A model generated the notes under the pieces. That model did not search any database. It was not told where the DNA came from and saw only the letters and a list, made by a program, of their open reading frames with translations. The position numbers and the translations under genes are program-made. 64,000 bases of DNA from a virus (lineage: Duplodnaviria; Heunggongvirae; Uroviricota; Caudoviricetes). Below are positions 1 to 64,000 of the stretch, in pieces (positions within the stretch are counted from its first letter, which is position 1; the number at the start of each line of letters is the position of its first letter). The stretch covers positions 307,105 to 371,104 of IMG/VR virus record IMGVR_UViG_3300042256_000013; one strand, given 5' to 3'.

Positions 1-2605
1 CAGTACCGATGAATACTCTATATAATTCTTCAGTTAACATAGTTTCACTGAATTGATATACAGCCGTACCTTCTATTACTGTTATGTACAAATAGAATGT
101 ACTATTAGCTGGATTACTTTTTATCGTACTTAAATCAACTGATTGAACTGGCATATCATGATATTTTCCTCCTAACAATACTGGTACTGTTTGGGTGAAA
201 TACACATTAAATCCTTGAGCAACATCTTGTGCAGCTACAACAATTCTTTCAATTGGTTCACTTGCAGGATTAGCTACCATTGCATCAAATTGAGAAACTG
301 TTGTTCCGAATAATTTAAATATCAACTTTGTTTTAACATCAGTAATATCACCATTCTCAAATAATCCAAAACCGACACCTGGTAGAACACCAACTTCGTA
401 TGAATTATTTAAACTCGAATTATATCCAGTTGGAATCATTTTTGGTGTTCCAGTAATTAATTTAGTACTGTTATCTACTTTACATACAATAGAGGATAAA
501 TTATCCGCACTTGTAACTACACAAGTACTTGAAGGAATTCCAACATATGTAAAATCATCATACTTTGCAACTATCAATCCTGGTTGTCTGTTTAACATTG
601 CTTGTCTTATACTAGATGCTGGGAGAGATCTTGTTATATATCTGGTACTTTCAATACTGTATACTGTAACTACATTATTAACAATTCCCAAATCTATTTC
701 AGCTAATAACAAATATGTATTTGATTGACCAGTTGGTGCATCAGTAATACCAGTAACTACTGCATAACTTTTTGTAAATGTATTTGGAACATAATAAAGT
801 ATAATATATGAATTAGTTGTGTTATACACTATATTCGATGCCTGATCTGATATAATTTCCTGTTTAATTGTAACTAATAAATTATTGTCAATAGAAAAAG
901 AATCACTAAATGAATAATTTGTTTGATCCATTACAGTACCACTGAACTTTGTTATATTTTCAATAAATGATGTACCATACACGGTACTGTTTCCAGTACC
1001 ATCGACTATTGTGACCATGTTAGAGTAACGATGGTCAGTGTTATCAAGAAGTTGACGATTTACATTTGGTGCAAATCCAGTTAAAGTATTTCCATTAACT
1101 ACTGATTTATATGGATATGTTCTGGTAGTTCCTAATGAAGTAACTACTGTATTATCTAATCCAAAATAATTTCCATTTTGTGTACCACTACAACAAATGA
1201 ATATTTTATCACGTGCTATAATTGTTGGATGTATTAAATTATCCCCAATAGGAGAACCGTATGTTGGATAAATTGAATTGACAATCGTGTTTGATAGTAC
1301 TCTATTTTGAATATTCCAAGTTTCATATAATGAAACAAATGAATTCAATGTTCCTTTAGAAACGATATGTTCAGTAAATGTATCGTGTCTTGCCATTGTA
1401 CATAACGACACTCCATCATTCGTTGTAAAGATTGTAGGAACTCTATTCAATGATGCGTTTAACGACAATCCTGATAAATTTTGCATATCAAAAAAGAATG
1501 GGTTATCGTAAGTAATTACTCCAGTACTTGAAGTTGTTATAGTAACTGGTGCTTGTGCAGAAGTATCATATGTGTATTGTTTTGTACTTGTATCGTACAC
1601 AAAACTGATACCACTCATTGTTCTAAGATTAGATTGCTGAGTTGCAGTTTCAATACCATGCATAAATGCAACACGTATATTATTTCCTGAACCTGCTGCC
1701 TGTAATGAACCTTCAACATTTCCCCAAAAAATAGATATTCCTCTATAAACATTTCCAGTTGGAATTATAATATATGGTTTATCTGAACTATTTTGACTAA
1801 AATACATATCAGCTAATTTAATATTAGGACTTGCAATTAATGTGTCACCATATAAATTTGTACCATTAAATCCAGTTACCTTTGTTAATGAAGTATAAAC
1901 TCCAGCTTTAACGTTAGCGACAGATATTGTATACAACGAAATAGCAAATTCTGATGTATTGTTGTATCCGTCTAAACACCAAATATAAACAACACCATTA
2001 TGTACCATTGCATATTGAGGGTCTGTATTAACAATTAATGATGCAGGAAATTCAACACTTTCATGTGAAATTGCATTTAATGTACCATTAGTTAATGAAA
2101 TACTGTACGTATTTTCTGTACCATTATTTGTGTGCATAAGCAATACATCACCGGCATTTGAACCAACAAACGAGTTCAATACATGATTAGATGTAAAAAA
2201 TGATGGTACAAATTTTTCATTAGTTTGAACTGGAGATAAAACACTACTTGTTCTAACACTGCTTTGATAGCAATAGTAGTACCCGAAAGTACTACCATTA
2301 GTTCCTGGTCGAAGATAAACCATTGTTCCGTCATTTTCTAAAATTACGGGTTGTATACCTTTTCCTGTATAGTTCGTGGCTCCTTCGAAGGAGCCATTAA
2401 TACTCATAGGTAGATAATCCATCGTACCTACTCTTGATATTGGAAGAATAGAAACTATTTCATCAAATTCAGTTTTTGTGTAATATGGAAAATCCAGATT
2501 ACCTTCAATATCAGGTGTTATATCGTTAACATCACGAATAACGTTAAGACCTTTTGTAGATATGTTTGCATCTACGCTTAGATCTCCATAAATTTTTTTA
2601 GACAT
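1..2605 (-). CDS. Tail fibre / baseplate-associated structural protein, 3' end outside window (paralog of 2619..5357)
   Basis: Not in ORF track. Start translated by hand from ATG at 2605: MSKKIYGDLSVDANISTKG...ILPISRVGTMDYLPMSINGSFEGAT...ILENDGTMVYLRPGTNG, which matches the neighbour's LPLSQYG...LLEEDGTLVFLRPGTNG. Confidence 0.7.
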   Translation of the reverse strand, partial: MSKKIYGDLSVDANISTKGLNVIRDVNDITPDIEGNLDFPYYTKTEFDEIVSILPISRVGTMDYLPMSINGSFEGATNYTGKGIQPVILENDGTMVYLRPGTNGSTFGYYYCYQSSVRTSSVLSPVQTNEKFVPSFFTSNHVLNSFVGSNAGDVLLMHTNNGTENTYSISLTNGTLNAISHESVEFPASLIVNTDPQYAMVHNGVVYIWCLDGYNNTSEFAISLYTISVANVKAGVYTSLTKVTGFNGTNLYGDTLIASPNIKLADMYFSQNSSDKPYIIIPTGNVYRGISIFWGNVEGSLQAAGSGNNIRVAFMHGIETATQQSNLRTMSGISFVYDTSTKQYTYDTSAQAPVTITTSSTGVITYDNPFFFDMQNLSGLSLNASLNRVPTIFTTNDGVSLCTMARHDTFTEHIVSKGTLNSFVSLYETWNIQNRVLSNTIVNSIYPTYGSPIGDNLIHPTIIARDKIFICCSGTQNGNYFGLDNTVVTSLGTTRTYPYKSVVNGNTLTGFAPNVNRQLLDNTDHRYSNMVTIVDGTGNSTVYGTSFIENITKFSGTVMDQTNYSFSDSFSIDNNLLVTIKQEIISDQASNIVYNTTNSYIILYYVPNTFTKSYAVVTGITDAPTGQSNTYLLLAEIDLGIVNNVVTVYSIESTRYITRSLPASSIRQAMLNRQPGLIVAKYDDFTYVGIPSSTCVVTSADNLSSIVCKVDNSTKLITGTPKMIPTGYNSSLNNSYEVGVLPGVGFGLFENGDITDVKTKLIFKLFGTTVSQFDAMVANPASEPIERIVVAAQDVAQGFNVYFTQTVPVLLGGKYHDMPVQSVDLSTIKSNPANSTFYLYITVIEGTAVYQFSETMLTEELYRVFIGT

Positions 2606-2618
2606 TGTAATTTCCTTA

Positions 2619-5357
2619 TTACCAACTTATGCTTCCGGGTTGCTGAGGGTATCCAGTACTGACAGGGAATGCAGAACCAATTTGTGTTTCACTTGGTCTA
2701 AAGATGTCAAATCTTGAAACTTTATTAATGTTTAAAGTAGTTACATTAGTACCATCAGTTGTTGCTGTTCCAATGTACATATTGGTACTTGTTTCACCTA
2801 ATTCAGTTTCAGATACATGATATGAAATAGTACCATTCAATTCTTGAACATATATGTAAAATGTACTATTTCCCGGATTTGCTTTAACATCGTTTAAATT
2901 TAACACTGTTATTGGTAATTCATAATATACACCATTTAAAAATACTGGTGTTCGTTCAGTTAAGTATATATAAAATCCAACTGTTACATCTTGTGAAAGA
3001 ATAACTATATCAGTTCCAGTTCCAGCAGCCATATTTGATGTAAATTGTGATAATGTATTTCCACAATTTTTAAATATTAATTTAGTTCCTTTATCCGTAG
3101 GACTAAACAGATAATATCCAAATCCTAAATTTGGTATATAACTATACTCACGTTGTGCATTAGAGTTGAATCCTATTATAAAAGTACTATCAGATACAAT
3201 AACGTTTGAAATTGTATTTCCATTAACAATTCCACAAACAGTGTGTATTTGAGAAGAACCGGGTATGGAATATGGAACTGTATAAGAAAATGATATATAT
3301 GTAAAATCTGCATATTTCACACATGATAGACCACTATGCTGCCTCATCTCATTTTGAATTAATATATTAATCATGTTTGTTTTTGGTTCATTCATAAAAA
3401 TAGTATTCATTGTAGCACTTAATACATTAGTACTGTTAGCAGTACAATCAACTGTAGCTGATAGAATTGCACCAACACCAGAACTATTATAAGCAGTTAC
3501 ACAAGCAATACTTTTACAGTAATCTGTTCTTGGTGAATAATATAATGATATTTTAGAATTTGTAATACCAGTTAATCCTGAACCAGAAATAATTGTATTT
3601 TTTAACGATGTTAAAATAGAATTATCTATTGTTAGTGTTTTATCATAAGATAATGTAGTTGGATCAAATTTATTACCAGTTGTTAATTGTGTACTTTCAA
3701 AAAACACTGTTCCATAAGATTCAACCATATTAGCATTATCATGATATGATAATTTAGATATTGCAAGATTTTCATTATTATCACCAAATGGCATTCTGTA
3801 AATTTGTGGGGCATATCCAGTAATAGTACCACGTTCAACGGAATTATATACATAATTTCTTGACGTTCCTATATCTGCAATTCCACGATCATATTTGGTA
3901 TATTGATTACCATTATATGTTCCAGTTCCAGAAAATAATATTCTGGTTGTGCTTATAGGTGATCCAGCAGTTAATTGATCACCAACTCTTGATGCAAATT
4001 CTGAATAAACATTAGTGTAATCTTGTAAACTAATAGTTCTATTTCTCATTTTATATGCATTTGCTTTATTAGTAAAATTAGAAATACTACATCTACTAAC
4101 CAAATATGTATCATCAAGAACATATTTTTCTTTTATTGAATATTGAATTCCGTTGTCAGTAACGAACATGGAATTTCCATTTCCATCAGCAACTTTTGTT
4201 CCAACTCCATATGTATTTGCTGAAGTTATAGAGTATGGATTATCCCAAGTAATTATTCCAGTACTTGCACCATTTGCATATATTGGTCTATTAGAAGTTA
4301 AATCAGTTGTGAAATTTCTGGTGATTACATTGTATGTAATAGTAATATTATACAATGTATCAACCCGTTGTGTATTATTAGCAGCAAATGCATTTGTATA
4401 AAATGAAAATATTATATTAGTTCCATCGTAATATGCTTTACCTCTACCAACTAATGAATAAGTATATCCTGCACAATTAGCTATAGTATTGTTATATTTT
4501 ATAAATGAATTAATTCCACTTTGAGTAGTTGCAGTATATACATCAGAAATTCTAATTACATTTCCTGGAGTTGCTGAACCATATAACGTATTTCCAGTAA
4601 TGCCAGAAATTTGTTCAATAGTTGTGATTGCCCCGCTTTCAATTTGAGATGTTGGAATACGATAAAATACAAATTGAAGTGGATCATTATTATTAGGATT
4701 TATTACTAAAGGACCACCATATGTACTGGTATATAATGCAATTATATACACATAAGAATCAACTTTTAATGCAGTTAAAATATTATAAGGTATTGCTGAT
4801 GATGGAAATGATGCAGATTTGTGATTAGTTTTATCAAGAGTTCCATATGTTAATACTACTGATAATATATTATTTTGTAAATCATGATACAATAAAGTAT
4901 CTTTTGTATAAGAATCATAGAATAAAATGTCATTAGACGAACCTTCATAATATGGTCTTATGGTTGGATATGGAGAAGTATTCATATCAGGATTATTAAT
5001 ATAAGTGTAATAATAATTAATTTTATTACCATTAGTACCTGGTCTTAAAAATACCAAAGTTCCATCTTCTTCTAACAGAATAGGCATACTTGAATAATAT
5101 GCTACAGTACTACCACCTTCATATGATCCAGATGCACCAACTGGTAAATTATTTAAAGCCCCATATTGAGATAATGGTAACTGTTTTAGAACATTATCAA
5201 TATCAATTCCTGTAGCTATTGGTAATTCAACATGACCATCAATATCTGCATGGAAAATTTCAGATTCAGATTCTAACTTAATACCGGTTCCAACTATTTT
5301 ATTTTGTACTGTCAGATTGTTTCTGACATTTACATTTCCTTTTATTTTATAAGCCAT
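2619..5357 (-). CDS. Putative tail fibre / structural protein (912 aa, T/S/N-rich beta protein)
   Basis: Composition, position behind a late promoter, N- and C-termini shared with flanking paralogs (C-term GSAFPVSTGYPQQPGSISW). Confidence 0.65.
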   Translation of the reverse strand: MAYKIKGNVNVRNNLTVQNKIVGTGIKLESESEIFHADIDGHVELPIATGIDIDNVLKQLPLSQYGALNNLPVGASGSYEGGSTVAYYSSMPILLEEDGTLVFLRPGTNGNKINYYYTYINNPDMNTSPYPTIRPYYEGSSNDILFYDSYTKDTLLYHDLQNNILSVVLTYGTLDKTNHKSASFPSSAIPYNILTALKVDSYVYIIALYTSTYGGPLVINPNNNDPLQFVFYRIPTSQIESGAITTIEQISGITGNTLYGSATPGNVIRISDVYTATTQSGINSFIKYNNTIANCAGYTYSLVGRGKAYYDGTNIIFSFYTNAFAANNTQRVDTLYNITITYNVITRNFTTDLTSNRPIYANGASTGIITWDNPYSITSANTYGVGTKVADGNGNSMFVTDNGIQYSIKEKYVLDDTYLVSRCSISNFTNKANAYKMRNRTISLQDYTNVYSEFASRVGDQLTAGSPISTTRILFSGTGTYNGNQYTKYDRGIADIGTSRNYVYNSVERGTITGYAPQIYRMPFGDNNENLAISKLSYHDNANMVESYGTVFFESTQLTTGNKFDPTTLSYDKTLTIDNSILTSLKNTIISGSGLTGITNSKISLYYSPRTDYCKSIACVTAYNSSGVGAILSATVDCTANSTNVLSATMNTIFMNEPKTNMINILIQNEMRQHSGLSCVKYADFTYISFSYTVPYSIPGSSQIHTVCGIVNGNTISNVIVSDSTFIIGFNSNAQREYSYIPNLGFGYYLFSPTDKGTKLIFKNCGNTLSQFTSNMAAGTGTDIVILSQDVTVGFYIYLTERTPVFLNGVYYELPITVLNLNDVKANPGNSTFYIYVQELNGTISYHVSETELGETSTNMYIGTATTDGTNVTTLNINKVSRFDIFRPSETQIGSAFPVSTGYPQQPGSISW

Positions 5358-5366
5358 TATAATCCC

Positions 5367-5939
5367 TTACCAATTTATGGTTCCATTTTGTGTTGGTAAT
5401 CCATTACTTACCGGGAAAGATGAACCAGCAGAATTATATGCTGGACTAAACACATCTAATCTTTTTCTTGCATTTATATTAATACCACCAATGGTTGTAA
5501 TATTTGTAAAAAGTATTCCAATCCAAAAAATATTGTACGCAGATGAACCTGATTCAGAAATAACATCTTCAGAAATTAGATACTTAGCTAATCCTTGTTC
5601 TAATGTAATATAAACATAATATGTTGTATTAGCTGGATTAGGTTTAATTGTAGTTAAATTAATATTTGTTTGCGGTAATGTAAAAACTTTACCAGATAAT
5701 AAAACATCAGTTTCATCATTAAATTGAACAGTGTATCCAGAACTGGTAATATTTCCAGGCTCAAAATGTGATAGTGGTAATACACTTAGTATTTTATTGA
5801 AATAGTCTATTCTGAAAGTATCTATACTAGCATTTCCTGTTCCATCAAATGCTGTATCATTTACTGAACGTGCTAAGTTTTTAGAACCAGCTTCAGCATG
5901 TCTACCAACTTCCATATTCCCTTTAATTTGTAATGCCAT
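5367..5939 (-). CDS. Short paralog of the tail-fibre-like family (N- and C-terminal modules only)
   Basis: MALQIKGNMEV start, LPLSHF, NPANTTYYVYI, GSSFPVSNGLPTQNGTINW all match 2619..5357. Confidence 0.65.
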   Translation of the reverse strand: MALQIKGNMEVGRHAEAGSKNLARSVNDTAFDGTGNASIDTFRIDYFNKILSVLPLSHFEPGNITSSGYTVQFNDETDVLLSGKVFTLPQTNINLTTIKPNPANTTYYVYITLEQGLAKYLISEDVISESGSSAYNIFWIGILFTNITTIGGININARKRLDVFSPAYNSAGSSFPVSNGLPTQNGTINW

Positions 5940-5972
5940 AATATCCTCATCTTTGACAGAATTTCATTATTG

Positions 5973-5980
5973 TATTTATG
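5973..5980 (-). promoter_or_regulatory. T4-type late promoter (CATAAATA)
   Basis: TAAATA core ~35 nt upstream of the structural genes, just downstream of a terminator. Confidence 0.55.
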
Positions 5981-5992
5981 GACTATATAAAC

Positions 5993-6015
5993 AAAAAAAG
6001 CACCCATTGGGTGCT
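5993..6015 (-). terminator. Intrinsic terminator
   Basis: AGCACCCA/TGGGTGCT stem followed by a T-run on the minus strand. Confidence 0.75.
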
Positions 6016-6188
6016 TATTCTTCATCAGGATCGTAGTCCGGTGCAATGTATGTTACAGTAACAATGAATGTTCCATGAGCATCACCAAATGCGTCAGTAA
6101 CTACATCGTCATTATCAATGAAATCGATTGGATCAATTGACTCAACCTGATTACCCTGAAATGTTTTATTGTATATAACTTTACTCAT
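6015..6188 (-). CDS. Small acidic hypothetical protein (57 aa)
   Basis: Hand-translated MSKVIYNKTFQG...PDYDPDEE, start overlaps the nrdG stop. Confidence 0.6.
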   Translation of the reverse strand: MSKVIYNKTFQGNQVESIDPIDFIDNDDVVTDAFGDAHGTFIVTVTYIAPDYDPDEE

Positions 6189-6654
6189 AATCTTTACCTT
6201 TTACCAGTACTCTTTGATTTTCTGAACCTCTGAATGGAAGTTTAAGGTTCTTGAGTTCTTCAACAAATTTACCATCAACAAGTACGTCAACGTAATTCAG
6301 AACATCATGAGCATGATTTTCTAGTACTTCTTCCAGTGTATAACCAGTCCAGCACCAAATATTTTTTGTTGGGAATTCTTCTTTCACAATCCTACACAAA
6401 TCAAGAACAGTACTGATATTTTTAGTCATCAGTGCATCTCCACCAAGTAGAGTTAAACCCTCTACATAAGGCTTAGAGAGTTCTAATAGGATTGTATTAA
6501 TTTGTTCTTCCCCAAATGGTGTTCCTGAACGATAATCCCAAGCTTCTTCATTGAAACAACCAGGACAACCGTGACTACAACCTGATACATATAAACTGAC
6601 ACGAACACCAGTGCCATTTATAAGGTCGTCTTTTACTATTGTTTGATAATTCAT
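6181..6654 (-). CDS. nrdG: Anaerobic ribonucleotide reductase activase (radical SAM)
   Basis: NGTGVRVSLYVSGCSHGCPGCFN (CxxxCxxC), FRGSENQR. Confidence 0.95.
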   Translation of the reverse strand: MNYQTIVKDDLINGTGVRVSLYVSGCSHGCPGCFNEEAWDYRSGTPFGEEQINTILLELSKPYVEGLTLLGGDALMTKNISTVLDLCRIVKEEFPTKNIWCWTGYTLEEVLENHAHDVLNYVDVLVDGKFVEELKNLKLPFRGSENQRVLVKGKDYE

Positions 6655-8250
6655 TAATAATTGCTCATAAGCAGTACCTGAGTATCAAAGATTTCATCGT
6701 AGTACGTAATACTTTCCAGAAATTCTATTGCAGATTCCCGGTCTTTGAACCTCATAAATTTGTCACCATCATCACAACCAACGAACATAACAACAAATTT
6801 GTTTTCATTGTAGTTCTTAATATAGTCATCACGATAAATTTCATGATGTAGTACTGAATTATAACTGGTTTTTGGAGATAACGTTTCTTGCATGTAGTAT
6901 TCTTCTTCAGAAGTCATCCAATCTTCCCAAATATGATAATGATAGCAAGGAACCACTCGCCTATGTTCAGCTTCTGGATGCATATTTTCGCATGAATAAT
7001 AACTTATTGCTCGAAAATCTTCATCAAATACTGGAAGGTAGCCTAACAACCGATCTGAATTGTAGCAGAATGTCCAATTCACATTAACTTTATCGTGTAT
7101 CATGATTTATTCCTTAGAGAATATTGGTACATAAGAGTTTATTTTGGTACAATATATCAACGCATCGCGAGTACTTCCACTAAAATTACTATCATCAATG
7201 ATAATAGAATTTTGTTTAACTACAGTTCTCTCGAACAGATGTTTAATGTATTTGTCACGTTGTGTTGCTTTCAACATATTAATTTTAAATGTTGAACCCA
7301 TTTCTTCCATACGTGATAAGTGACTACGTAATTCAGCTTTTTGAAGACCCAGCGTAGGTGCAAGGTCTTTAAAGTACTGAATATCGTTTTTCTTTGCAAT
7401 CCTTATATCTCTATCTAATAATTGCACCACTTTCAGTACAAAATCAGAAGAACTTTCTGGAATGATAATAGTACTTTTCTTCTTTACATATGGCCTAAAA
7501 GCACAACTGATTGTATGAATCATTGTATTGCGATTTTCGCCTAAAGAATAGCCATATTTTTCTTTTAGAGCAAAATATAGCAGCATGTTTTCACGTTTTG
7601 TCAAGTCGAATGGAATCATATTAGATATTCATAAGGTTAAAGATAACGCCACTTCCTGCATAGAATGGCTTAATTTTTCCAGCAATATCATCTAAAGCAT
7701 AGAAAGCAGGATACGTATCGCCGTTGATAGTTATAAAATAGTTCCCAAAAGACAAATCATGAACATGGTTCAATGTTGTAACTTGGTCTACATCGTTACT
7801 GTACTTTGTAAAGTAAAATTCATCATCACCCATATATGAAGTGAATTCGTCGATGTTTCCTTTGCGAACTGGTTTAGATGCAACGTATAGTATCTTACCT
7901 TCACCATGATCTTTAGTTACAATTGTTGGTTTGATCTGAGTGAACTTACTAACTACTAATTCAATATGGTCAGCAGACTGATTGTAAGTATAATCAGAAA
8001 CATGTTCCATGTAATAATCAAGTAATTCATATAACCCATTTTTCGCTTCAAGTAATAGATTAATTTGTGCTATTGATTCTTTAGCTTTATCTAAGAAATA
8101 AGAATTGTCTTCAATTTTATCGAAGGTTTCCAAAATATCTGGAATATTACCTCGAATACTTTCTACTGTAATTTTTCCTTCGCCAATTCCTGTAATTAAT
8201 TTAGATAATGTTTCTGCTACTTTTTGTTTACTTTGAGTTAAATTTTCCAT
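6654..8250 (-). CDS. Three hypothetical genes between nrdD and nrdG (6654..7103, 7107..7619, 7621..8250)
   Basis: Abutting ORFs; the third most likely starts at MENLTQ (8250), just after the nrdD stop. Confidence 0.6.
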
Positions 8251-8251
8251 T

Positions 8252-10057: not shown

Positions 10058-10107
10058 AAGACACTCCTTGTCAAATTGTTAGGTAGTTTATTTAAACCAC
10101 TTAAAAT

Positions 10108-10135
10108 AAAAATACCCCATATGAAGGGGTATTTT
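10108..10135 (-). terminator. Intrinsic terminator upstream of nrdD; a TAAATA late-promoter core follows at 10089-10096
   Basis: AAAATACCCC-N7-GGGGTATTTT hairpin. Confidence 0.65.
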
Positions 10136-10286
10136 CTTTGATCTAGATCAAGGTTTTGGGACTTTGGTTAACGTTTGTTCAGGAAGCTACAGAAGTCCAA
10201 AACAAATAATATTGCCATTACTCCGATTGAACTTAGTGTTACAACGTAGAACCAAAACAACGCCATCAAAATATCATGCCACATGA

Positions 10287-10844
10287 TTAGACTCCTTTAG
10301 CTTGAAATCCGTATGTTTTGCTTAGTATTTCAAGAATTATTGTTGGCATTTCTTCGTGAGTATATTCACGCATATCGATGAATGGAATATTCATCTCTTC
10401 GAGATTTTTCACAAAGATTGCATCAAGCTCTTTAGCTTCTTCTAAAGTCTGAGATCGACCGTACTGATCATATTCAGGCTTACGAGGAAGTAAGAATACA
10501 ATATTATCGTACTGCTGATATAATTCGAATGCAATTTCAGTACTGATATTATCATAATCATCATAGAATTCATTGTACATGATACCATTCAGTAATGAAG
10601 CATCAGATACAACAAAATCCACCTTTCCATTTAAACGGAATAGGCGGTGATTCTGTTGAGCAGTAATAAGAACCTGATCTTGCATTGCCATTTTATTTTC
10701 ATCATAAACATAGTCTTTGATTACTTCAGTAACAATTTCAACTTTCTGTTTAGATTTAAGTTTAAGTGCTGCAAATAGGCCAGCAGCAGTTGTTGATTTA
10801 CCACAACATGGTCCACCAACAAGATTAATAACAACTGTATTCAT
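10287..10844 (-). CDS. P-loop nucleoside/nucleotide kinase (NadR/AAA_28-like)
   Basis: INLVGGPCCGKST Walker A; YDQYGRSQTLEEA; start moved to MNTVV. Confidence 0.75.
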   Translation of the reverse strand: MNTVVINLVGGPCCGKSTTAAGLFAALKLKSKQKVEIVTEVIKDYVYDENKMAMQDQVLITAQQNHRLFRLNGKVDFVVSDASLLNGIMYNEFYDDYDNISTEIAFELYQQYDNIVFLLPRKPEYDQYGRSQTLEEAKELDAIFVKNLEEMNIPFIDMREYTHEEMPTIILEILSKTYGFQAKGV

Positions 10845-19044: not shown

Positions 19045-20487
19045 TTATAGATTTTCTTCTGCAAACGCAGCAAGAACAGAACGTTGTACGCCCTCTAACT
19101 CAATGATTCTGCAACCTTCCCAATCTTTGAATTTCTCGGTTACATAAGTCAAACCTGAGTTGGTAGGACTAATGAACTTATTATCAATCTGAGATAAGTT
19201 ACCCATGATGATCACTTTACAGTTTTCACCAGCACGAGTAAGAATTGTTTTTGCTTGAGCAGGAGTAATGTTCTGGAATTCATCAACAATCAAGATTGTA
19301 TTGATGAAACTACGACCACGAACAAAGTTCAATGCTTTGAATTGGAAGACATTACGTTTCATAATTTCTTCAATTGAACCTTGTGGATTCGCATCGTCTT
19401 TATGCAGATACTCTAACGCATCCACAGCAGCACCACAGAATGGCATTACTTTTTCTAGTTCTGAACCTGGCAAGAAGCCGATTTCTTCGAACTGAGAATC
19501 TTGTGTTTTAGAGAAGATAATACGGTCATATTTCTTCTTCTCTAGTACTAATTCAAGTGCAGTTGCAATAGTGATTAACGTTTTACCAGTACCTGCTGGA
19601 CCTAATAGGATTGTAAGATGTACATCTTTATCCATAATAGAGTTAATAGCCATTGCTTGTTGAATGTTCTTGGCTTTAATATCCCATACTTTACGAGACA
19701 TAGCTTTCGCTAAACCTACATCGCTGAAACATAACATGTCACGATCATCATCTGCATCAAGTACTGAAGCATAACCTTCAAATACGAATAGACCATCTGA
19801 CTTATCATAAATGTAATCACCAATGAATAAATCAGAAGGAAGAATGTGTTTAACATTTTCTTCTGGAATCATGTGAACTAGTTTCGAACCAGCTTGATTT
19901 GAATACACTACATCACCAACTTCAGCCCAAAAATCTTCTACTTCCAATTCGTGATTGCCAGTATGGATTAGGTCAGAGTCTTCAATAGTTACATCGTGAC
20001 GATAATCTTGTACTTCAACACCGTATGCCAGTGCTTTAATACGCATATTAATGTCGCGAGTTACTAGAACTGCTTGTGATAGTTTAGCAACTAAGATGAT
20101 TTCGTCATCTGGTACTGTACTTTTGAAAAGAGTGTCAAGCTTAGGATCGAAGGTTTCAGAATCCAAATTTGGGTTCGCCATATGCCAGATTGCTGTAAGT
20201 TCTTCGATTGTTAGTACAAATAGACGAGTGTCTGCGTTGATGTGTGGGTGGGTTTTTGAAATCTGAACACCTTCAGTGCTGATTTCTTCATGAGTTGCTG
20301 TTTCAAGAATAGAACTAATGTTGCGAATAGCAACACGTGCATCTCGTGAAATATCAACTTTACGACTCTTGATGGAATCTAATTCTTCAAGTACTTTGAA
20401 CGGTAGAATTACATGTGAACCTTCAAACGCTAGGATTGCGTTAGGATCACCAAGAATCACGTTTGTGTCAAGAACATATTTTTTCAT
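19045..20487 (-). CDS. phoH: PhoH2-type PIN-PhoH ATPase
   Basis: N-term PIN YVLDTNV...VLEELD...PDDEI...TRDINMR; GPAGTGKT, RGRSF, VDEFQN. Confidence 0.92.
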   Translation of the reverse strand: MKKYVLDTNVILGDPNAILAFEGSHVILPFKVLEELDSIKSRKVDISRDARVAIRNISSILETATHEEISTEGVQISKTHPHINADTRLFVLTIEELTAIWHMANPNLDSETFDPKLDTLFKSTVPDDEIILVAKLSQAVLVTRDINMRIKALAYGVEVQDYRHDVTIEDSDLIHTGNHELEVEDFWAEVGDVVYSNQAGSKLVHMIPEENVKHILPSDLFIGDYIYDKSDGLFVFEGYASVLDADDDRDMLCFSDVGLAKAMSRKVWDIKAKNIQQAMAINSIMDKDVHLTILLGPAGTGKTLITIATALELVLEKKKYDRIIFSKTQDSQFEEIGFLPGSELEKVMPFCGAAVDALEYLHKDDANPQGSIEEIMKRNVFQFKALNFVRGRSFINTILIVDEFQNITPAQAKTILTRAGENCKVIIMGNLSQIDNKFISPTNSGLTYVTEKFKDWEGCRIIELEGVQRSVLAAFAEENL

Positions 20488-41979: not shown

Positions 41980-42005
41980 AAAAGAAAGGACACTATAGTG
42001 TCCTT
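41980..42005 (-). terminator. Intrinsic terminator
   Basis: AAGGACACT/AGTGTCCTT stem plus T-rich tail. Confidence 0.75.
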
Positions 42006-42705
42006 ATTTGTCTTTCCATTTTTTACCATTTTGCCAATCTGGATGACTTAATCTATAATCATTTTCATCCATAGTATGGGTGACAGTGCCATCTTTATGA
42101 ACTAACCATTTTCTTTTAGAAGCAGCAGATGAATAATTTTTCTTATGTTCTTCTGTTCGAATTTTTCCAGTATTACTTTTTCTAATTCCATCAGACCATT
42201 TTTGTTTTTCAGAATAAGACATATTATAAAAACAAGGCTTTCCATACATAGGATTATTTTCACCAACGAATTTTCCTATCATACGTTCACTAATTTTTGA
42301 ACAAAATTCATCTGTCATTTTCATTCCTTTATTCCATGATACCACTTCCCCATTGTCATATTGGGCTTTTCGTATTCTGGACATATTTTGAATGAATTGT
42401 TCTTTTTCTTCATTACTCATAAATGCGGTCATTCCACCACGACCACCAACCTTACAATTATATGTATCTTTTCTTTTAATGAATTCTTCATTCACTATTT
42501 CTTTTTCTTTATCATACATATCAGAAGGTGTATCTAAAATGAATAAGGTTTCTCTCTTAAAATTTTCTATACCATATTTTTTAATGGCAAGTTTTATGTA
42601 TTTCCCAGAACCCATATAACTGTCATTCAAATTTTCAGTTTTATGTGCTCCAATATAAATTTTATTATTAATTAAATTTGTTACTTTGTAAATTAAATAG
42701 TGCAT
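42004..42705 (-). mobile_element. Free-standing GIY-YIG (Seg-like) homing endonuclease with NUMOD3 repeats
   Basis: LIYKVTNLINNKIYIGAH, YMGSG, YGIENF, YNCKVGGRGG, GENNPMYGK; start MHYLIY has SD GGAGG. Confidence 0.9.
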
Positions 42706-42731
42706 ACAATCCTCCGTATGCACTATTTATA
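42694..42731 (-). promoter_or_regulatory. Start-codon-sequestering 14-bp hairpin overlapped by late promoter TATAAATA
   Basis: TAAATAGTGCATAC-GGAGGATT-GTATGCACTATTTA on minus strand; TATAAATA at 42724-42731. Confidence 0.85.
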
Positions 42732-50743: not shown

Positions 50744-51292
50744 TTACTCAGTATATGGTTGAACTACAAAGCCAAGACTTTTTAGTACTTCAATTTTTTC
50801 TTCAGTAAGATTATTATCATATATTACCAACATACTTGGGAATGGTGCACCACTTTTCTTATGTGAACCATCTTCAGTCCATGAAGGTAAACTACGGTTA
50901 TCGAATTTTAAACGACCTTTAACAAAACATACAGCACTTGCAGAAGTAGCTACGTACTTATGAAAATACGAAGTATCTGTACGTGCTGGAGGCAGAGCTA
51001 CTATAGTAGTACCGTTTGTGGTAAATTCTTCATGCATCTTTTTGAACCATTTACCTATTTGCCTACCGTAAGGGGGGTTCACCCACACAGTTTCACCTTC
51101 CCACGAATGTGCAAGGCCGTCTGTTTCAGGGGTGTAGTACTTCTCACATTTTGCTGTATCATCCATAGCAGCAGGATCAAGTGTGAAGTTCCATACAGAA
51201 TTTAGCTTTTCATAAAAATCATCTGGAGTATCCCAGGTGTTTGATGCTGAACTAAAGTGTACGGATGGTGTATTGTTGTTTTCTTCTTCCAT
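50744..51292 (-). CDS. Phage Dam-type DNA N6-adenine methyltransferase
   Basis: WDTP, FTLDPAA, DGL, WVNPPYG, PARTDT, GRLKF, APFPS. Confidence 0.9.
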   Translation of the reverse strand: MEEENNNTPSVHFSSASNTWDTPDDFYEKLNSVWNFTLDPAAMDDTAKCEKYYTPETDGLAHSWEGETVWVNPPYGRQIGKWFKKMHEEFTTNGTTIVALPPARTDTSYFHKYVATSASAVCFVKGRLKFDNRSLPSWTEDGSHKKSGAPFPSMLVIYDNNLTEEKIEVLKSLGFVVQPYTE

Positions 51293-52491: not shown

Positions 52492-52494
52492 ATA

Positions 52495-52534: not shown

Positions 52535-52538
52535 CACG

Positions 52539-55500: not shown

Positions 55501-55952
55501 AAGCATATCAGTACCATCTTTCCTGATTAGTACAACTCCCGTAATAGCCTTTAAGTATCCTGCATGTGATGTGTTCATTTTATAACCCTCTCGTTTAGGT
55601 GTGTACATTATAGCACAAAAAATTATTCTGTTTCATCTTTCTGATCAGAATCAGAAGTACTTAACATTTTATGCCATTCTTTGAAATTTGTCAACTGCAA
55701 ATAGAAATTATCTTCATCTTCGTCATCCATTACATGTGCTAACCCGAATAGGTACTTCGCTGCATTACTCTCATCCATTTGTACAGATGAATTGAAAATT
55801 CTTTCAATAGCAGATTTGTAATTTGGTGCATCCGAAATGTATATAGTACTACCATCATAGTACTGAACTTCTTCTGCATTTCTCGGTATTCCACGCTTAC
55901 CTAACCAAATAAACTTTGGTTTATCATGAACGAATTTTAATTTACGCTTCAT
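52539..55952 (-). CDS. Seven hypothetical genes (52539..52886, 52903..53691, 53691..54443, 54443..54802, 54815..55162, 55186..55608, 55623..55952)
   Basis: Abutting ORFs; terminator 54787-54812; promoter 55606-55621. Confidence 0.6.
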
Positions 55953-56067
55953 ATTTTATTGTGTTCTTGGTAATTTTTTCCCTAATATAAGTGGTGAATC
56001 AGGAGAACCATTGAATATATGATCCAGATGTTCCGTAAGTGAATGTGCTTTAAAGTCCAACAAAATA

Positions 56068-56247
56068 TTAACCCTTAGAAACGTCAAAGGACGCATAGTA
56101 GCGTCCTTTGTGTTTAGTTTTTCCATTCTTCGAATCTTTTTTACGATCAACATGCGTCGCAGCTTTGTTGAAAGTGTTCATATGCTTCGCGACGAAGTTC
56201 TGAACATCAGGTACTTCAGAAGTACTTTTCTTCTTGGACTTAGCCAT
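56068..56247 (-). CDS. Small basic protein, ArfA-like (59 aa; absent from ORF track)
   Basis: SD GGAG; MAKSKKKSTSEVPDVQNFVAKHMNTFNKAATHVDRKKDSKNGKTKHKGRYYASFDVSKG. Confidence 0.55.
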   Translation of the reverse strand: MAKSKKKSTSEVPDVQNFVAKHMNTFNKAATHVDRKKDSKNGKTKHKGRYYASFDVSKG

Positions 56248-56250
56248 TTC

Positions 56251-56727
56251 TTACTCCAGGTATGGGTTTTTGTGTGTTAAACTTTCTATGTCTTCAGCAG
56301 TAATCATAACATGAGGTTCACCCTCAGTAAAGAGAAAATCGTGATAACTCTCACGTACTGCAAAATTATCCATGACATAGCCTTTAGACAAGAACATAAG
56401 AATATGTTTATCATCAGGTTTAGTATAAGTATTTCTAAGCTTTTCCACTTCTGATTGTGGAGTCTTATCTTTATTGTTTCGCATTACACATTCGTTGAAT
56501 TCTGTATTCATCGTCATGGGTGTTGCCATAATCCATTTATCAGTACTGTTAATCGTAACAGCAAAGCAGTTGCACATTGGATTATTGAAAAATTCGTACA
56601 TTGTCGAACTACATAAGAAAAGGCATTGAATAATGTCCTTGATGTTAAACATAATCTCATGTACTTCAAAGGCTTCGTTAGTGATCACATCATCAATCGG
56701 CCCATTCTCTTTATGAATAATATTCAT
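56251..56727 (-). CDS. Late-expressed hypothetical protein
   Basis: TATAAATA at 56778-56785; SD GGGAG. Confidence 0.6.
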   Translation of the reverse strand: MNIIHKENGPIDDVITNEAFEVHEIMFNIKDIIQCLFLCSSTMYEFFNNPMCNCFAVTINSTDKWIMATPMTMNTEFNECVMRNNKDKTPQSEVEKLRNTYTKPDDKHILMFLSKGYVMDNFAVRESYHDFLFTEGEPHVMITAEDIESLTHKNPYLE

Positions 56728-56807
56728 GTGTCCACTCCCTTGAACTCTTTTAATGCACCGCATCGGTGCTCTAAAAGTATTTATACTCGTCCTTGAGTAC
56801 TGATTTG

Positions 56808-59800
56808 TTATGACGTGGTTAATTTCCGCAAGAATTCTTCATGAACTCTACGGCACATCGTAATCGTTTCTTGCATTGTATCATAGTCGAACTGTACTGG
56901 CAAGCCAAAAACAGCACCATTGTTCGTAAATGCAGAAGGGAGATCTTCTAACGTAAAGGAACCTTCAAAGAGATTAGTACTCAATTCTGTTCCCGCCTGA
57001 ACGAAGAAAAATTCAGGACTGTAACGTATGATAAGATTTTTCTTGTCAATACCTATGTTACATAAATCTTGTAAAGTCTGAGTGCGTACTTTTAACTTGT
57101 ACACATTCTTACGAACTTCCTGAACATCCAAAGAATATCCTTCACCTATGTAAAAGTTATTCCTAGGAGAAAGTTCTAATCCATTAATGTTACTCAAAAC
57201 ATCTTGAATAATAAAATTGATTGGATCAATGTTCTCAATTATGTTCAGCATTTTGTTCTTCCAATTTCTGTACTAATTTTCTATATTCTTCAACATGTGG
57301 TTCACCAAGAATATAATCCATACTAATAGTTATTTCAACATATTGTCCTTCCCACATAAGTTTTAATACTTCCTGTACTGCTATAAAATATTCTTCAGGT
57401 GGCAAATCCACTTGAGTCATTTTTTGGAAGTACCAAGCTTCATCATGCTCTAAGTCATCATTGAGTTTATAATCATTACATCCAAGTACTTTCATACCTT
57501 TATTCATCGGTGAAAATGAAAAAGTATCTTCATTAACAAAATTACCTAAATTTATGTTTTGAAAATGTAATTCTGCTGTACGATGTAATGTCTGAAAACC
57601 CTTAGTTGATTTCATGAAGAACTGAATACAATAATCTTTTATATATCGAACTAAGAAATTTCCACAATCACTATAAACATCATAATAACCAACTACATTA
57701 TCTCTAGGATTCTCTAAAAAGAACTTCTCTGCTCTTTTTAAAAGTGGTAACATTTCTTGAGCAAGAAATAGTTCTTTTAAAAAGAGATCTGGATTGCCGG
57801 GGCTACTGACCTGATGTATTTTTTTTAATATTTCATGATCAATTTGTGCTGTTACTTCAGCATCAATTTGTGCTTGCAATTCTGCAATAAAGTCATCATC
57901 ACTAGTAATAATGTCCTTGATAGCCTTCGAAAGTAAATTGTCCATTTAGTATGTCTTCTGCTACGTCCATATGCATCGTGCTATGGTCTAAAATTTTAAT
58001 ATTGTTAGTTTTGAAAAGGCAGTACGATGGCATTATATCAGGTTCATATTGATTGATATATTTAATAGAATCATAATGCACATTTTCCCTGAGAAGTAAA
58101 TTATGTAATGTACGCCATCCTTCATCTGAACCTTCATCAAAAGATTCATAGGGGGCAGTACTGATTAATTCGCACTGGTGAATGTGTATATGATCAATAT
58201 CATGACCTTTTTCACGACCCTCATATAACTTACGTAGAGCACATTCAATCGCACTCTGGTATCCACCACAATGTAAACCACCATAAGGAATATAGAATTC
58301 ATCAATCTTTACAGTACCAGCATGAAATACAATCATATTACTCTGAACCCTTCAAGTGTTTTTAAATTGAATAATTCAAACTCGACGTTAATTATAATAT
58401 CTTCACGTAATAAATTAGGTAGAAGATGCTTATAATAGAAATTAACTTCTTGTTGAAATAACTCGTACTCAATAATGTTCTGTACTGTTAATTGCTGGAA
58501 GAAATATTCTTCTCCGTACTCATCAAAAGTTTCTTCTGCGTTAGAATGGTGCAGTACTGGAATGTATCTTTTATTCCAATCCTTTTGATGATCTCCAACA
58601 ACTAAACACAAATCATCATTATATCTCCCATTGTACCACGAAAACGAATCGTTTGACAAGATAAATTCTGTCCAAAACGCGGAATCCCTGTCCATCGTAC
58701 TAATCTCAAAGACTGCCGATTCTGAATTAGATTCATCATATACAGAGAAATATCCTGACCGCATAGTTATATTTTGACCAGTACCACGAAAATTATTGAA
58801 CTCGAATTTATAATTTTCTTCTGTACCAAGATTTGAATAACGTTCTTCCATTTTTAAATATAAATTGTATACGTGTTGAATCATGTAAAACGTTTTATCA
58901 GTACTAAATTCTTCTCTAATCATATATACCAATGACTGTATGTGTATGGATAATCAGTGCTGTCTTTGTGTAATTTCATTAATTCGGAATGCTTAACTAA
59001 CATATTCAATGTATTATTATGCAAGTACTTTCTAACAAAACCAACATATCCAGTACTATGAATTAAACACAAATAATAATAATAAAACAAATCTTCATCA
59101 TCGAATAATGTTTGTAACTGGAAATCAAAAGCTTCATCAAATTCAGTTATTCTACACAATTGTTTTCTAAATTTTCTATGATTGTAATTTAATCCTGAAC
59201 CATCAAATTTATAAAATGCATTTGGGTCATATGGAAAAGTTGTACCATCCAAAAATAATATAAAACTATTATAACCTTTAGTTTTTTGAATTTGATTAGT
59301 ATAAAATCTGCACGATTTAATAGAAATAGAAGACTTAGTTAACCTTTCAATACAATCATTTTTATTCTCTAAAATAATTGCAATCTTATCTACTAAAAAT
59401 TTAGCTTTATTGAATACTTCTAAACTCATAATCCTGCTGTTCTTCTTATTGCGAATTCGCCCATCTTAAGGTCATTCTGTATTTTTTTCATTGCAGTACT
59501 ATCATTTAAAACAGTACTAAATTTATTAATGCCATCAGACCCAGGTTCAGTTATTAATTGCAGAACACATTGATGGTCTTTCTTAATGTCCACGAAGTAC
59601 TGATACAAATCTTCTGAACTTAAATCGAATAATGTTAAATTCTGGAAGTACTGTTCTTCTGGAATAGGATACTGAAGTACTTTATTCCTATCACGGTCTT
59701 CTACCCATATCTTATCAGTATTTTGTACTTTACCAAAATTGATTGCAGAACTTTCTGCGTCGCCCAAGAATTGACAACAATCCCAATTATCAGGCTCGAA

Positions 59801-62800
59801 GTCCATACTGTATTCGAACACAAAGTCCTTTCCGATTATCTTTAATTGTACCCAATATGTAGTACAAACTAATCTATAAGACAAATCTCCGCTTGAACCA
59901 CCCATATCACTTGTGTGAAATGATCCCTTCTTTACACTATCCAGTACTAACTTATCTACAATACCAACAAGTACAGATTGTTCTTCATGGAACTTCTTAA
60001 GTAAATCACAATTCCTCATACTATCCATGTACCTCTTTATATTCTTCTTTAAGTGCTACTTCTAATAAATTAATCATTTCATCATCCATCCGACGAATAA
60101 CTATACCCTTTAAATGCCATGACTTCAATGCACAAAATAGATAGTACTGAAATAAATCAGTATCATCAAAAACTGTTTGACACTGGAAATCCCATGCTTC
60201 ATCAAATTCATTCATAGGAATTAAACGTTTAGTCATTTTATTCTTTGAACAAAAGTAATCTCTATCAGTCAGTACTATATATGAGTTGTCAATATTGAAG
60301 TTTGTATTAGCCTGAGCGGGAACCTCATCACGAGTAAGAACCAATATGTTTCTGGATTCTTCATCATAATCTTTCTTAATATGAAGCTTAGAGTGTTGTA
60401 CTGATAATATTGCGTACTTCTCAAAATCCATTATCCCTTTTTCTGGCAATCCGTCCATGTACTGATGAAGTACAAAGATCTTCAATGCCATCTCTTTAGC
60501 TTTTTCAAATACTTCTATACTCATGCTGCCCTCGCATCGTTCCCGCCGCCCACTTTATATTGATAATAATTTTGAGAAGCGGAAATTTTTATTGATTATT
60601 TTTTGTACACGTTTTTTAAGGTGAAGACTTATTTATCATCTCCAATTTCGCTATACATTCCCTTTCAAGCCACTTGCCCCATTCTTCATCACGAGCATCA
60701 ATGCGGTCTTTCTCAACCTGAATCAGCCCATCGAGAACTTCCTGTACTGATTGTACCATATTTTCTTTGCTCGTTTCATCTATTTGTTCTTCTGCTATCC
60801 ATCCTGCATTGAACGAATAAGCAATAAAATTATCAATACCTTCCATCACATATGCACCTGTACTCATGAATAAATCCATATCTGATTCTAACGGTACTGG
60901 AAACCTCGTTAACTCCTGAAACACTTGTTCCTCTTGTAATGGGTATTCTAATTTACATTGGTTGGCTGTTGATAATAATCCCATAGAATGATTTATTAAC
61001 AATGTAGTACTGTTCTTTCTGTACGTACTGAATCCTATGCTTGTACAATCTGAATTTAATCTAAAATGTGATGTACGCAAATTAGCTACTGGTTTACCTG
61101 TATTGTAGAAAAATGTACAAGAGAATAATTCTTTATCTGGACGAACATAAACAGTGAATGTCATCCTGTCATATAATGATCTTACTAACCGGCACCGGAG
61201 AGTTTCATTCTCAAAAGTTAACACATCTGTCTGTACTGTCTCAAATGATTTCATCAGGATTTTCAATACGTCTTTGAAAGCATTTTGTACGTACAGGTTC
61301 TTAAACGTTGTTCTTTCTGGATTCAATTTCATCTCCTACGATTTGTATTAATTCTAATAGTTCTTCTGGACTCAATAAGTCCAGTACTCGATAATCTAAC
61401 TTCATAGTACTTCGAAATCCTTTCTGCTCCTTTTCTTCTGCAATTAAATTTAGTTGATGTATCTGTAATGCAATCAACTGCGTTTGAACTTCATTCATTG
61501 TGTACAATGTTAAATTCTGAAAGATTATCGGATCAATTATATCAGGTTCAAGACTTGTATCAACCGATAACGCAGGATATGTCTGAGCCATCATATCTAA
61601 CCTATCAGTACTGGCACGTCGAATACCACTAGGAGGCCAGTAAGTCCAGAGGGAAGGAAAAATAGCTCGTACATCATCCCATATCTCAGGATGAAATGGT
61701 TCTACACTAGAACCGAAATACAAAAATTCAGGATACATTTCGAACTGAATATCACGAAATGCAATGTAAGCTATACTCGGATTTGCAGCGATGTAATAAC
61801 TTTTAGATGTACTTAGTGTACCCTGAAGTTGAGTAAATCCTAATCCTTCATCTGATTTGTACATGTAATACAGTTCATCCAGTAATTTCATTAACTGTAT
61901 TACTTCATCCAGCTTTTGCGGCTTCATGCTCTAATCCTATTGCAGTACTAAAATATAAATCAAGTAATCCCTTTTCACGTTCAGGGTCTATTCCAACAAA
62001 CGGTACTATGTTCATGATGTACTTCTGAATACCAACATCCTCATTGATAAGAACCTGATTCAGTAGTATTGCCGTTAAATCATTCATGTTATATTTCGTC
62101 ATTAACATGAACTCCATAACTTCTAATTCATCTGGATCATTCTCATGAAGCATCTCAAAGATTTTAGTAGGAGTGTTCGTCTTTGCGAAGTGATAAGGAT
62201 TAGAAGACTTAGGAAATACATTCAAAGAACGACCATTGTAATTACTGAATTGATCTGTTTGTTCTTCATGAGTACTCAATCGTACTAATAACTCTGAACT
62301 CCCTTTATATAACCTCTGACCCTGAAAAACAACTTCAGCGTCATTATAATTCGTATAAAGAGTACAAGTTACATTAGAACCAAACGCAGGAATAAACTGA
62401 GTAGTACTGTAATTGAACATAGCAGGATAGTCAGCTTCATATAATTTCTGAATCCTTGGAAACAATTTTAAGTACTGCTCCCTGAAATGAGAAATTATTG
62501 AATAATGAAAATTAATCGTCTTTAACATCATGTTCTCCATCTAAGTAAGGTACTAACAATTGAAGTACTTTTTGAACATCTAAATCGTAATCTTTCAGTA
62601 CCATTCCAATTGATATTGCTGGATGATCATTTTTATAAAGTACGTTAATCATCTTCTCATACTGTTCATCCCATAGTGCATAATCTTCTTCAGGCAATGT
62701 TTCCTGTACTGTCATACGCTGAAAGAAATATTCTTCAGGGAAAGGAAAGGCAATGAAAGTATGCTGCTGACCGTTCTTAGCATTCGTAGGATCATACAGT

Positions 62801-63117
62801 GCGTAGTACCTTGGATGATCTTCTTTCCAGAACGCAATACGCATTCCATCAGTGTTAAGATCGAAAGTACTTAAGTATTGAGAACTCGTATTAAAGGAGA
62901 TACTGAATACAACATCTTCTTCCCATGTACCTAAGTAATAGAGTTTAAGAATGTATTGGTACTCGTTAAATGCACCATCAGTCCATCGTGCTACTGAAGC
63001 ACCGTACTCTCCATTTAAAGAGATGTAACGTTTATCTTGAGTTGGCATCTTAGGAACCAAGTGCTCCCACGTTCCTAAGAACATTTCTTTTAGTTTTTCG
63101 TACTTCTTGTAATCCAT
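56808..63117 (-). CDS. Tandem array of 10 divergent proteins sharing an ExxxFQxxT motif (56808, 57235, 58333, 58920, 59426, 60021, 60616, 61301, 61905, 62512)
   Basis: Motif read directly in the translations; see findings. Confidence 0.75.
57902..58336 (-). CDS. ADP-ribosyltransferase-fold protein (ART-PolyVal-like)
   Basis: VFHAGT...F...GLHCG...A...YDSIKYINQYE...SYCLF...NIKI pattern. Confidence 0.55.
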   Translation of the reverse strand: MIVFHAGTVKIDEFYIPYGGLHCGGYQSAIECALRKLYEGREKGHDIDHIHIHQCELISTAPYESFDEGSDEGWRTLHNLLLRENVHYDSIKYINQYEPDIMPSYCLFKTNNIKILDHSTMHMDVAEDILNGQFTFEGYQGHYY

Positions 63118-63722
63118 TATTCGATGTATCCTAAATTTATGGATCGTTCAATTAGTTGCTGAACAATACCTTCGTATGAGATTAAATCAATAGGTGCTTC
63201 AGGGTGTTTACCGTAAATCATGAAAGTACGGTACTTCTCATTCTGTAAGTACTGAATACTCTCGTGTACCTTAGATTCCATGTTAGGTGTATTAGTACAG
63301 GAATAGTATTCAGTACCCTGGAGTACTATCATACCCTGACCAACGAATGAAGAACCTTCCAGTACTTCAAGAGTACAATCATTTCGCAACATACCAATAC
63401 GAACGTGCGGGTTAAAGTGGTCGCCGATTGTGATTGCAGAAGAATTACCCCCTACATCATATTTCACGGTAAGACCCATAGTACCACCAAGTTCTAAAAG
63501 AGTATGTTCGACCTGATCACTAAAAATACAAGTTCGACCACCCTGAAGTTTACCTTCGATGCTTAGAACTAACTGAATCAGTACTTCCGAGATTTTGAGG
63601 AACCGCGTGTAGTAATCTTCGCCGAGGTCTACAATTGATATACCACTATGTGCATTTCGTTTAATCATGTTAAGGCGACGATTCCACTCAACGTTCGCCA
63701 TTTCGTTTGCAGTACTTTCCAT
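63117..63722 (-). CDS. Hypothetical protein heading the array
   Basis: SD AAGGA; motif not evident. Confidence 0.6.
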   Translation of the reverse strand: MESTANEMANVEWNRRLNMIKRNAHSGISIVDLGEDYYTRFLKISEVLIQLVLSIEGKLQGGRTCIFSDQVEHTLLELGGTMGLTVKYDVGGNSSAITIGDHFNPHVRIGMLRNDCTLEVLEGSSFVGQGMIVLQGTEYYSCTNTPNMESKVHESIQYLQNEKYRTFMIYGKHPEAPIDLISYEGIVQQLIERSINLGYIE

Positions 63723-64000
63723 TGTGTTTCCTTAATGTAGAATTAATTGTACAGGGAATACTTATACCCCGATTATAAGGCCGCTAAGCATTACTGGCCT
63801 TTAGTAAGCAAAAAATTTTTGCATAGTCCAAATATATTATATACAGAAAAGTCAACCAATACCTTATACAATTTAAAAGTCAAGTACTTTTATTCTGCAT
63901 AAAGTATTTTTCGGACTAATCTTAAAGTACTTAAATCCTTCGTGTAACGCTCTATGAGCGGCGTACAGTACAGCCTGACCCGCCATACTCTACCTCATAG

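Follow-up and report, generated by a model that had tools for sequence, protein, structure and literature searches.

The stretch analysed here, hereafter the window, is 64,000 nucleotides long and constitutes the last 64 kb (positions 307105-371104) of a 371,104-bp phage record in IMG/VR (IMGVR_UViG_3300042256_000013; G000). Megablast searches with the window return the Rak2/GAP32/CBB-like jumbo myoviruses of enteric bacteria, the closest relatives being Xanthomonas phage XbC2 and Erwinia phage Kaldavass with ~85% nucleotide identity across 87% of the genome, and nearly all genes are carried on the minus strand. Distributed along the entire window (positions 1-64000), in coding sequences in all three reading frames as well as in non-coding DNA, are 201 copies of the palindromic hexamer AGTACT. 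A part of basal density (positions 1-43000) carries 110 of these sites, or 2.56 per kb, and a part of high density (positions 43001-64000), which forms the start of a ~51-kb region of early genes, carries the other 91, or 4.33 per kb. The results described below indicate that selection acts on AGTACT at the DNA level. They also point, with a probability of roughly 0.5, to a function of the word, together with its favoured flanks, as a positively selected recognition sequence on duplex DNA for a putative two-fold symmetric DNA-binding protein. Coordinates marked 'record' follow the numbering of the full record and all others that of the window, and the coding statistics rest on 584 crude calls of open reading frames (ORFs) over the whole genome.

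Excess of AGTACT over composition and coding nulls

The count in the window compares with 21.5 copies expected from base composition and with 17, 39, and 88 expected under Markov models of order 1, 2, and 3; the tetramer GTAC is also in excess, with 558 copies against 203 expected. Over the whole genome AGTACT occurs 1087 times, where 125 (order 0), 104 (order 1), 216 (order 2), and 453 (order 3) copies are expected. This represents a 9- to 10-fold excess over the base-composition and order-1 expectations, and AGTACT is the commonest hexamer of this 36% GC genome, the runner-up being TTCTTC with 691 copies. The original prediction had drawn attention to the word from 29 copies in positions 58501-64000 and about 10 in the first 6 kb, figures that a recount reproduced exactly, and had argued that an element present in all three frames reflects neither codon nor amino acid usage. 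This argument was upheld by shuffling synonymous codons within each gene, a procedure that holds both the amino acid sequence and the per-gene codon usage constant. Far from vanishing under this null, the excess amounts to 179 observed against 46.1±5.5 shuffled copies in the coding sequences of the window (z=24) and to 960 against 250±13 in those of the whole genome (z=53), and the shuffles thus rule out a codon or amino acid artefact as its source. By frame, 483, 143, and 334 sites are observed where the synonymous null yields 136, 36, and 78, an enrichment of 3.5- to 4.3-fold in each, and across the genome non-coding DNA is the denser compartment (4.0 per kb, compared with 2.8 per kb in coding DNA). 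Survival of the shuffles, the presence of the word in all frames, and its non-coding density together identify the enrichment as a property of the DNA itself. When codon order is instead shuffled over the whole genome, the expectation falls to 139±11 copies, which indicates, by comparison with the synonymous null, that the protein sequences themselves have been bent ~1.8-fold towards dipeptides compatible with the motif.

Hexamer z-scores and a density profile along the genome, both suggested as checks by the original prediction, lead to the same picture. AGTACT ranks first among hexamers in this genome as well as in XbC2, Kaldavass, CBB, and RaK2, the order-1 z-scores of the five being 92-107, and its density is doubled in the early region. 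This region is a block of small early-type genes that occupies record 350-371 kb and 1-30 kb, thereby spanning the record junction, and it carries 4.85 sites per kb in coding and 9.39 per kb in non-coding DNA, compared with 2.5-2.7 per kb elsewhere. That the last 21 kb of the window lie inside this block explains the contrast between the two window ends. At the junction itself, the ends of the record (record 1-127 and 370978-371104) form a "direct terminal repeat" of only ~127 bp that resembles an assembly overlap. The CBB genome has a 22-kb terminal repeat, and a long repeat of this CBB style may have been collapsed in the assembly of the record.

Conservation, word shape, and spread of the motif

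Conservation was assessed by aligning the genome to its relatives with blastn, other hexamers in the same codon phase serving as controls. Full conservation was recorded for 73% of AGTACT sites and 47% of the other hexamers in comparison with XbC2, for 56% and 29% with CBB, and for 30% and 15% with RaK2. For XbC2, Kaldavass, and CBB the excess is seen in each of the three frames as well as in non-coding DNA, and for RaK2, with only 87 kb aligned, frame 1 is without such an excess and just one non-coding site falls in the alignment. The same protection is apparent at synonymous third positions, which in comparison with XbC2 are conserved inside versus outside the sites at 96% versus 86% for AGT, 87% versus 70% for ACT, 91% versus 73% for GTA, and 88% versus 70% for TAC codons. 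The associated p values range from 5e-5 to 1e-12 (the last for GTA), and the result repeats with Kaldavass and CBB. The ligases of RaK2 and of the present phage are only ~53% identical; that a phage so diverged is nevertheless rich in AGTACT argues that the density has been maintained and not passively inherited.

The full palindrome is favoured cooperatively over its halves, with 1087 copies of AGTACT as opposed to a total of 581 for AGTACN (N not T) and 546 for NGTACT (N not A). Flank preferences around the core are symmetric out to position -4/+4, the preferred extended form being TTnC-AGTACT-GnAA, and symmetric flanks combined with a preference for the whole palindrome are what binding by a dimer would be expected to leave. 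Avoidance of short palindromes is expected of phages, and the depletion of other palindromes that the original prediction took as the background for AGTACT is indeed severe. GCGC, CAGCTG, CCATGG, CTGCAG, CTCGAG, GAGCTC, GCATGC, GGTACC, and CGTACG are all absent from this genome, about 20 GC-containing 6-bp palindromes stand at 0 copies, and GATATC occurs 3 times. GCGC is missing from all five genomes of 346-378 kb (this phage, XbC2, Kaldavass, CBB, and RaK2), where ~230-385 copies would be expected, and occurs 337 times in the Pseudomonas relative PA5oct. Separately, XbC2 DNA resists EcoRV, which its authors took as a hint of modification (PMC11273794); the scarcity of GATATC in the clade may explain the failure to cut.

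Enrichment was found in all eight enterobacterial Rak2-like phages checked, with AGTACT counts of 1105 in XbC2, 1114 in Kaldavass, 1235 in CBB, 1011 in GAP32, 1012 in fHe-Yen9-03, 1001 in Turkey5, 919 in EC22.5-2, and 937 in RaK2, where the control of the reversed word gives 130-187. PA5oct and the T4-like phage RB14 deplete AGTACT, with 15 and 24 copies against 40 and 50 of the reversed word. Escherichia coli K-12 carries 400 copies in 4.64 Mb, or 0.086 per kb, against 1147 for the control, so that the host is depleted ~2.8-fold and AGTACT is 34 times as dense in the phage as in E. coli K-12. An excess of AGTACT joined to an absence of GCGC provides a simple signature for recognizing these phages in metagenomes. 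No paper was found that describes over-representation of AGTACT or of CAGTACTG in phages, the genome papers of CBB, RaK2, and XbC2 included.

The word is also shared with phages of a very different kind. A scan of IMG/VR for two copies of CAGTACTG within 4-30 bp yielded loci that split cleanly into ~28 with 2.6-7 AGTACT per kb and no GCGC, and a remainder low in AGTACT and ordinary in GCGC. Beyond Rak2-like contigs, the AGTACT-rich loci are proviruses of 25-35 kb and 38-42% GC that encode a large serine integrase, a terminase, and a portal protein, and they constitute a small temperate prophage family unrelated to the jumbo clade. These prophages carry 3.2-4.1 AGTACT per kb in the same flank logo as the jumbo phages: C at -1 is favoured 1.8- to 3.1-fold, G at -1 is disfavoured (0.23-0.58 of background), and at -3 and -4 T is favoured and C disfavoured. 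Gene content common to the small prophages and the jumbo phage is limited to a T4-type lysozyme domain and a SegE-like GIY-YIG endonuclease, the latter missing from RaK2 and Kaldavass, and a profile-profile screen with hhalign gave no match above 3% probability among 480/3040 pairs. A word held in common without a shared plausible gene implies that its reader would be a host protein, a phage protein that has diverged beyond detection, or a jumbo-phage protein whose mark is imitated by the prophages. The jumbo phage carries two paralogous SegE-like GIY-YIG genes (record 120191-120817 and 281651-282271), whose homologs in the small prophages are 31-35% identical; judged by their sequences, these homologs suggest gene flow between the two phage groups, which would have met in the same cells.

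The arrangement of the sites provides a further clue. Once a single tandem array is set aside, the only excess spacings between AGTACT copies are 18 and 20-21 bp. The excess at 20-21 bp arises because of a class of dual-site promoters with the pattern AGTAC-TTG(A/C)NN-N10-(C/G)AGTACT-(T/G)-TA(T/C)AAT, the sense strand reading AGTAC-TTGCAA, 10 bases, and (C/G)AGTACT-(T/G)-TATAAT; one example lies at record 8126-8093 on the minus strand. In these predicted early sigma-70 promoters one site abuts the -35 box and the other, which abuts the -10 box, frequently contributes the TG of an extended -10. Such promoters number 6 in this genome, 4 in XbC2, 6 in Kaldavass, 20 in CBB, 8 in RaK2, and 10 in the Rak2-like fragment G002, and 0 in PA5oct. 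Pairs at 18 bp number 9 against ~3 expected; the pair at record 10108-10150 (TACTGTTTTTATGTACAGTA) conforms to the LexA-box pattern CTGT-N8-ACAG. A 10-bp periodicity in the spacing histogram was traced to the tandem array, made up of 12 copies of AGTACTGGAT (record 19058-19173), and was therefore discarded. This perfect 12-copy array has no counterpart in XbC2, Kaldavass, CBB, or RaK2 and is probably a recent expansion. It lies within a ~2-kb stretch (record 17.3-19.4 kb) that has many AGTACT and no convincing ORF.

One gene of the window departs from the general pattern. A homing endonuclease gene at 42004-42723 on the minus strand (PHROG 314, E=1e-45; a weak NUMOD3 match; 29% GC) contains no AGTACT and no GTAC, where 5.7 GTAC would be expected (p=0.003). 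The original prediction had noted the lack of GTAC at 42004-42705 as consistent with recent acquisition, and a recount confirms the absence. With 584 genes tested, the p value of the single gene is by itself unremarkable; what stands is the pooled result with the two other endonuclease genes of the genome, 4 GTAC against 15.6 expected (p=5e-4). No homolog of the gene at 42004-42723 was found in the five relatives compared, and at its position XbC2 carries nothing and Kaldavass has a different endonuclease gene in the opposite orientation. As other strain-specific genes are not poor in the motif, the rule concerns mobile endonuclease genes only.

A putative reader and the rival explanations

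If AGTACT is a recognition word, its reader would be a two-fold symmetric, probably dimeric, DNA-binding protein for which ~3 sites per kb would mark the whole phage genome, with twice that density in the early region. At the strongest early promoters the same protein would serve as an operator-bound regulator, most simply by shutting off early transcription. Both the binding of a protein to AGTACT and the effect of that binding we infer from the word's shape, conservation, and placement. Several results weigh against this reading. Searches for shared genes produced no candidate reader, tblastn and blastp to E=5 having recovered just the lysozyme, the SegE-like endonuclease, and weak structural matches, and the conserved proteins of the early region, when scanned against Pfam, showed no recognisable DNA-binding domain. 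Genome-wide, AGTACT is not enriched at gene starts or stops, and outside the promoter pairs it shows no helical phasing; regulation alone therefore cannot account for the majority of sites. The window contains none of the dual-site promoters. A molecular drive that maintains sites may also yield the observed conservation. It is tempting, if decidedly speculative, to go a step further and regard AGTACT density as a self/non-self code, in which a jumbo-phage protein coats, protects, or privileges phage DNA and switches off its own early promoters, the unrelated prophages having copied the word and its flanks to pass as 'self' during infection of their host by such a phage. The genome-wide self mark put forward in the original prediction is possible, given the DNA-level signal and the contrast in density with E. 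coli K-12, but its methylation form is not supported.

In that form, a phage methyltransferase (MTase) would methylate AGTACT and so set it as a mark, possibly for self-recognition, and the phage encodes three orphan enzymes. These are a DNA adenine MTase of the PF05869 phage Dam family (50744-51292, minus strand), recognized by a domain match and orthologous by synteny to Kaldavass CDS_0605; a PF01555 N6/N4 MTase (record 302990-303850) located 4 kb ahead of the window; and a C5 MTase of 294 aa (record 103576-104460) that matches DNMT3-type catalytic domains along its entire length. In favour of such a mark, RaK2 has conserved counterparts of the Dam-like and C5 enzymes and PA5oct has neither, a distribution that parallels the AGTACT trait. 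The Kaldavass orthologs of all three, however, are 93-97% identical (93% for the PF05869 enzyme), and comparison of native with amplified Kaldavass DNA by nanopore sequencing identified exactly three modified motifs for three predicted MTases, namely GATC (N6-methyladenine), CCWGG (5-methylcytosine), and TGCAT; AGTACT, the commonest hexamer of that genome with its 1114 copies, is not among the motifs reported modified (PMC11780129). Judged by this literature on an 85%-identical phage, AGTACT would be neither methylated nor the holder of an orphan MTase target. The Dam-type gene at 50744-51292, offered by the original prediction as the candidate partner, therefore does not fit that role: it belongs to the phage Dam family, and its target is probably GATC and not AGTACT. 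The DNMT3-type enzymes to which the C5 enzyme aligns along its whole length are ones with short target domains, and in RaK2 bisulfite sequencing is reported to have shown methylated cytosine at CpG. RaK2, although just as rich in AGTACT, has no PF01555 enzyme, and no MTase domain was found in the non-structural genes of the small prophages scanned, so that a cognate MTase does not accompany the word in every carrier genome. On the Kaldavass methylome, the absence of the PF01555 enzyme from RaK2, and the enzyme families, all three phage MTases were rejected as partners, and a methylated AGTACT mark is very improbable. The mapping that would follow pairs PF05869 with GATC, the C5 enzyme with CCWGG or CpG, and PF01555 with TGCAT. 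The E. coli enzyme YhdJ, a PF01555-family member, targets ATGCAT. In the present genome GATC, CCWGG, and TGCAT escape the purge (observed/expected 0.82-1.8), as would be anticipated for protected motifs.

A neutral by-product of sequence-biased mutation or repair, arising from a drive like very-short-patch repair and without a reader-dependent function, would create and maintain sites in any frame and in non-coding DNA, and would thereby mimic conservation. We consider it unlikely, as one-mismatch neighbours of AGTACT are not depleted and several are even enriched, which argues against their conversion into AGTACT by repair, and as the host genome, under the same host repair, is depleted for the word. 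Nor do the two phage families have a repair gene in common, and the exact placement of sites at promoters and the doubled regional density would be hard to obtain from a uniform drive. A low probability likewise attaches to a density-coded protective signal for a nuclease/helicase, similar to Chi, by which phage DNA is spared and site-poor host DNA degraded. The 34-fold difference from the host, a density peak where CBB carries its terminal repeat, and the lack of AGTACT in recently acquired endonuclease genes would all accord with such a signal; known Chi sequences, however, are asymmetric and orientation-dependent, whereas AGTACT is perfectly palindromic and symmetrically flanked, no candidate enzyme came to light, of the RecBCD/AddAB type or any other, and the small prophages share no such gene.

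Two further possibilities carry little weight. Action at the level of RNA or translation, through a codon pair, an RNase site, or RNA-RNA pairing, gains some room from the placement of nearly all genes on one strand, by which strand symmetry cannot separate DNA from RNA, and from the Ser and Thr tRNAs encoded by RaK2; but enrichment in every frame, a non-coding density above that of coding DNA, and perfect palindromy with symmetric flanks, unexpected of an RNA signal, make it highly unlikely. It is less plausible still that AGTACT serves to bring in SlmA, the nucleoid-occlusion factor of the host. Its E. coli site, GTGAGTACTCAC, is the only host protein site with an AGTACT core that could be documented, is palindromic and read by a dimer, and requires G1, T2, A4, and G5 (PMC3020112), and enteric bacteria harbour SlmA as well as both phage groups. 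The required G1 and T2 around the AG(Y)(R)CT core are nonetheless absent from the phage sites: the genomes hold no GTGAGnnCTCAC and only 2-6 copies of GTnAGTACTnAC, G at -1 is the least-used flank, and GAGTACTC accounts for 9/1087 sites here and 0/369 in the small prophages. SlmA therefore cannot read most sites and was rejected as the reader.

These considerations favour the recognition word over its rivals and give it some wider significance. The clade purges palindromes to an extreme degree, yet keeps ~1000 copies of AGTACT under selection at a cost to both codon choice and protein sequence. This points to a new protein-DNA recognition system that would extend across a 370-kb viral genome and be present also in unrelated prophages of the same hosts, and identification of the reader could reveal how a virus marks, organises, or protects its DNA without chemical modification.

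Relation to known genomic words

Among known systems, the nick motifs of T5 and of Pseudomonas phages tf and Rembedalsseter (PMC11780129) resemble AGTACT as phage DNA words conserved within a clade. They number ~13 per genome, are strand-specific, and mark nicks, whereas AGTACT is present in ~1000 symmetric copies and no nicks are reported for Kaldavass. Chi (GCTGGTGG), the FtsK-orienting polar sequences (KOPS), and the DNA uptake and uptake signal sequences (DUS/USS) share with AGTACT a genome-wide excess, which in those cases lets a protein machine distinguish DNA. These words are asymmetric, often strand-oriented, and read by RecBCD, FtsK, and the uptake machinery, in contrast to the palindromic AGTACT, for which no reader is known. 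The nearest parallel is HIP1 (GCGATCGC) of cyanobacteria, an analogy already drawn by the original prediction and a fitting one: AGTACT is in excess over Markov and codon nulls, occurs in all frames and in intergenic DNA, and is conserved beyond background. HIP1, for its part, is a short palindrome above composition and codon nulls, found within and between genes and conserved beyond background, hence selected, and it too has no known reader (Elhai 2015, PMC4390886; Xu, Lawrence and Durand 2018, PMC5861425). The two nevertheless differ in important respects. HIP1 is an 8-mer found in the chromosomes of cells, where it is methylated by two orphan MTases whose targets lie within it, whereas AGTACT is a phage 6-mer, not listed among the modified motifs of a close relative, that persists in palindrome-purging genomes and is built into early promoters. 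With its reader in hand, AGTACT would offer an experimentally tractable parallel to the long-unsolved problem of HIP1.

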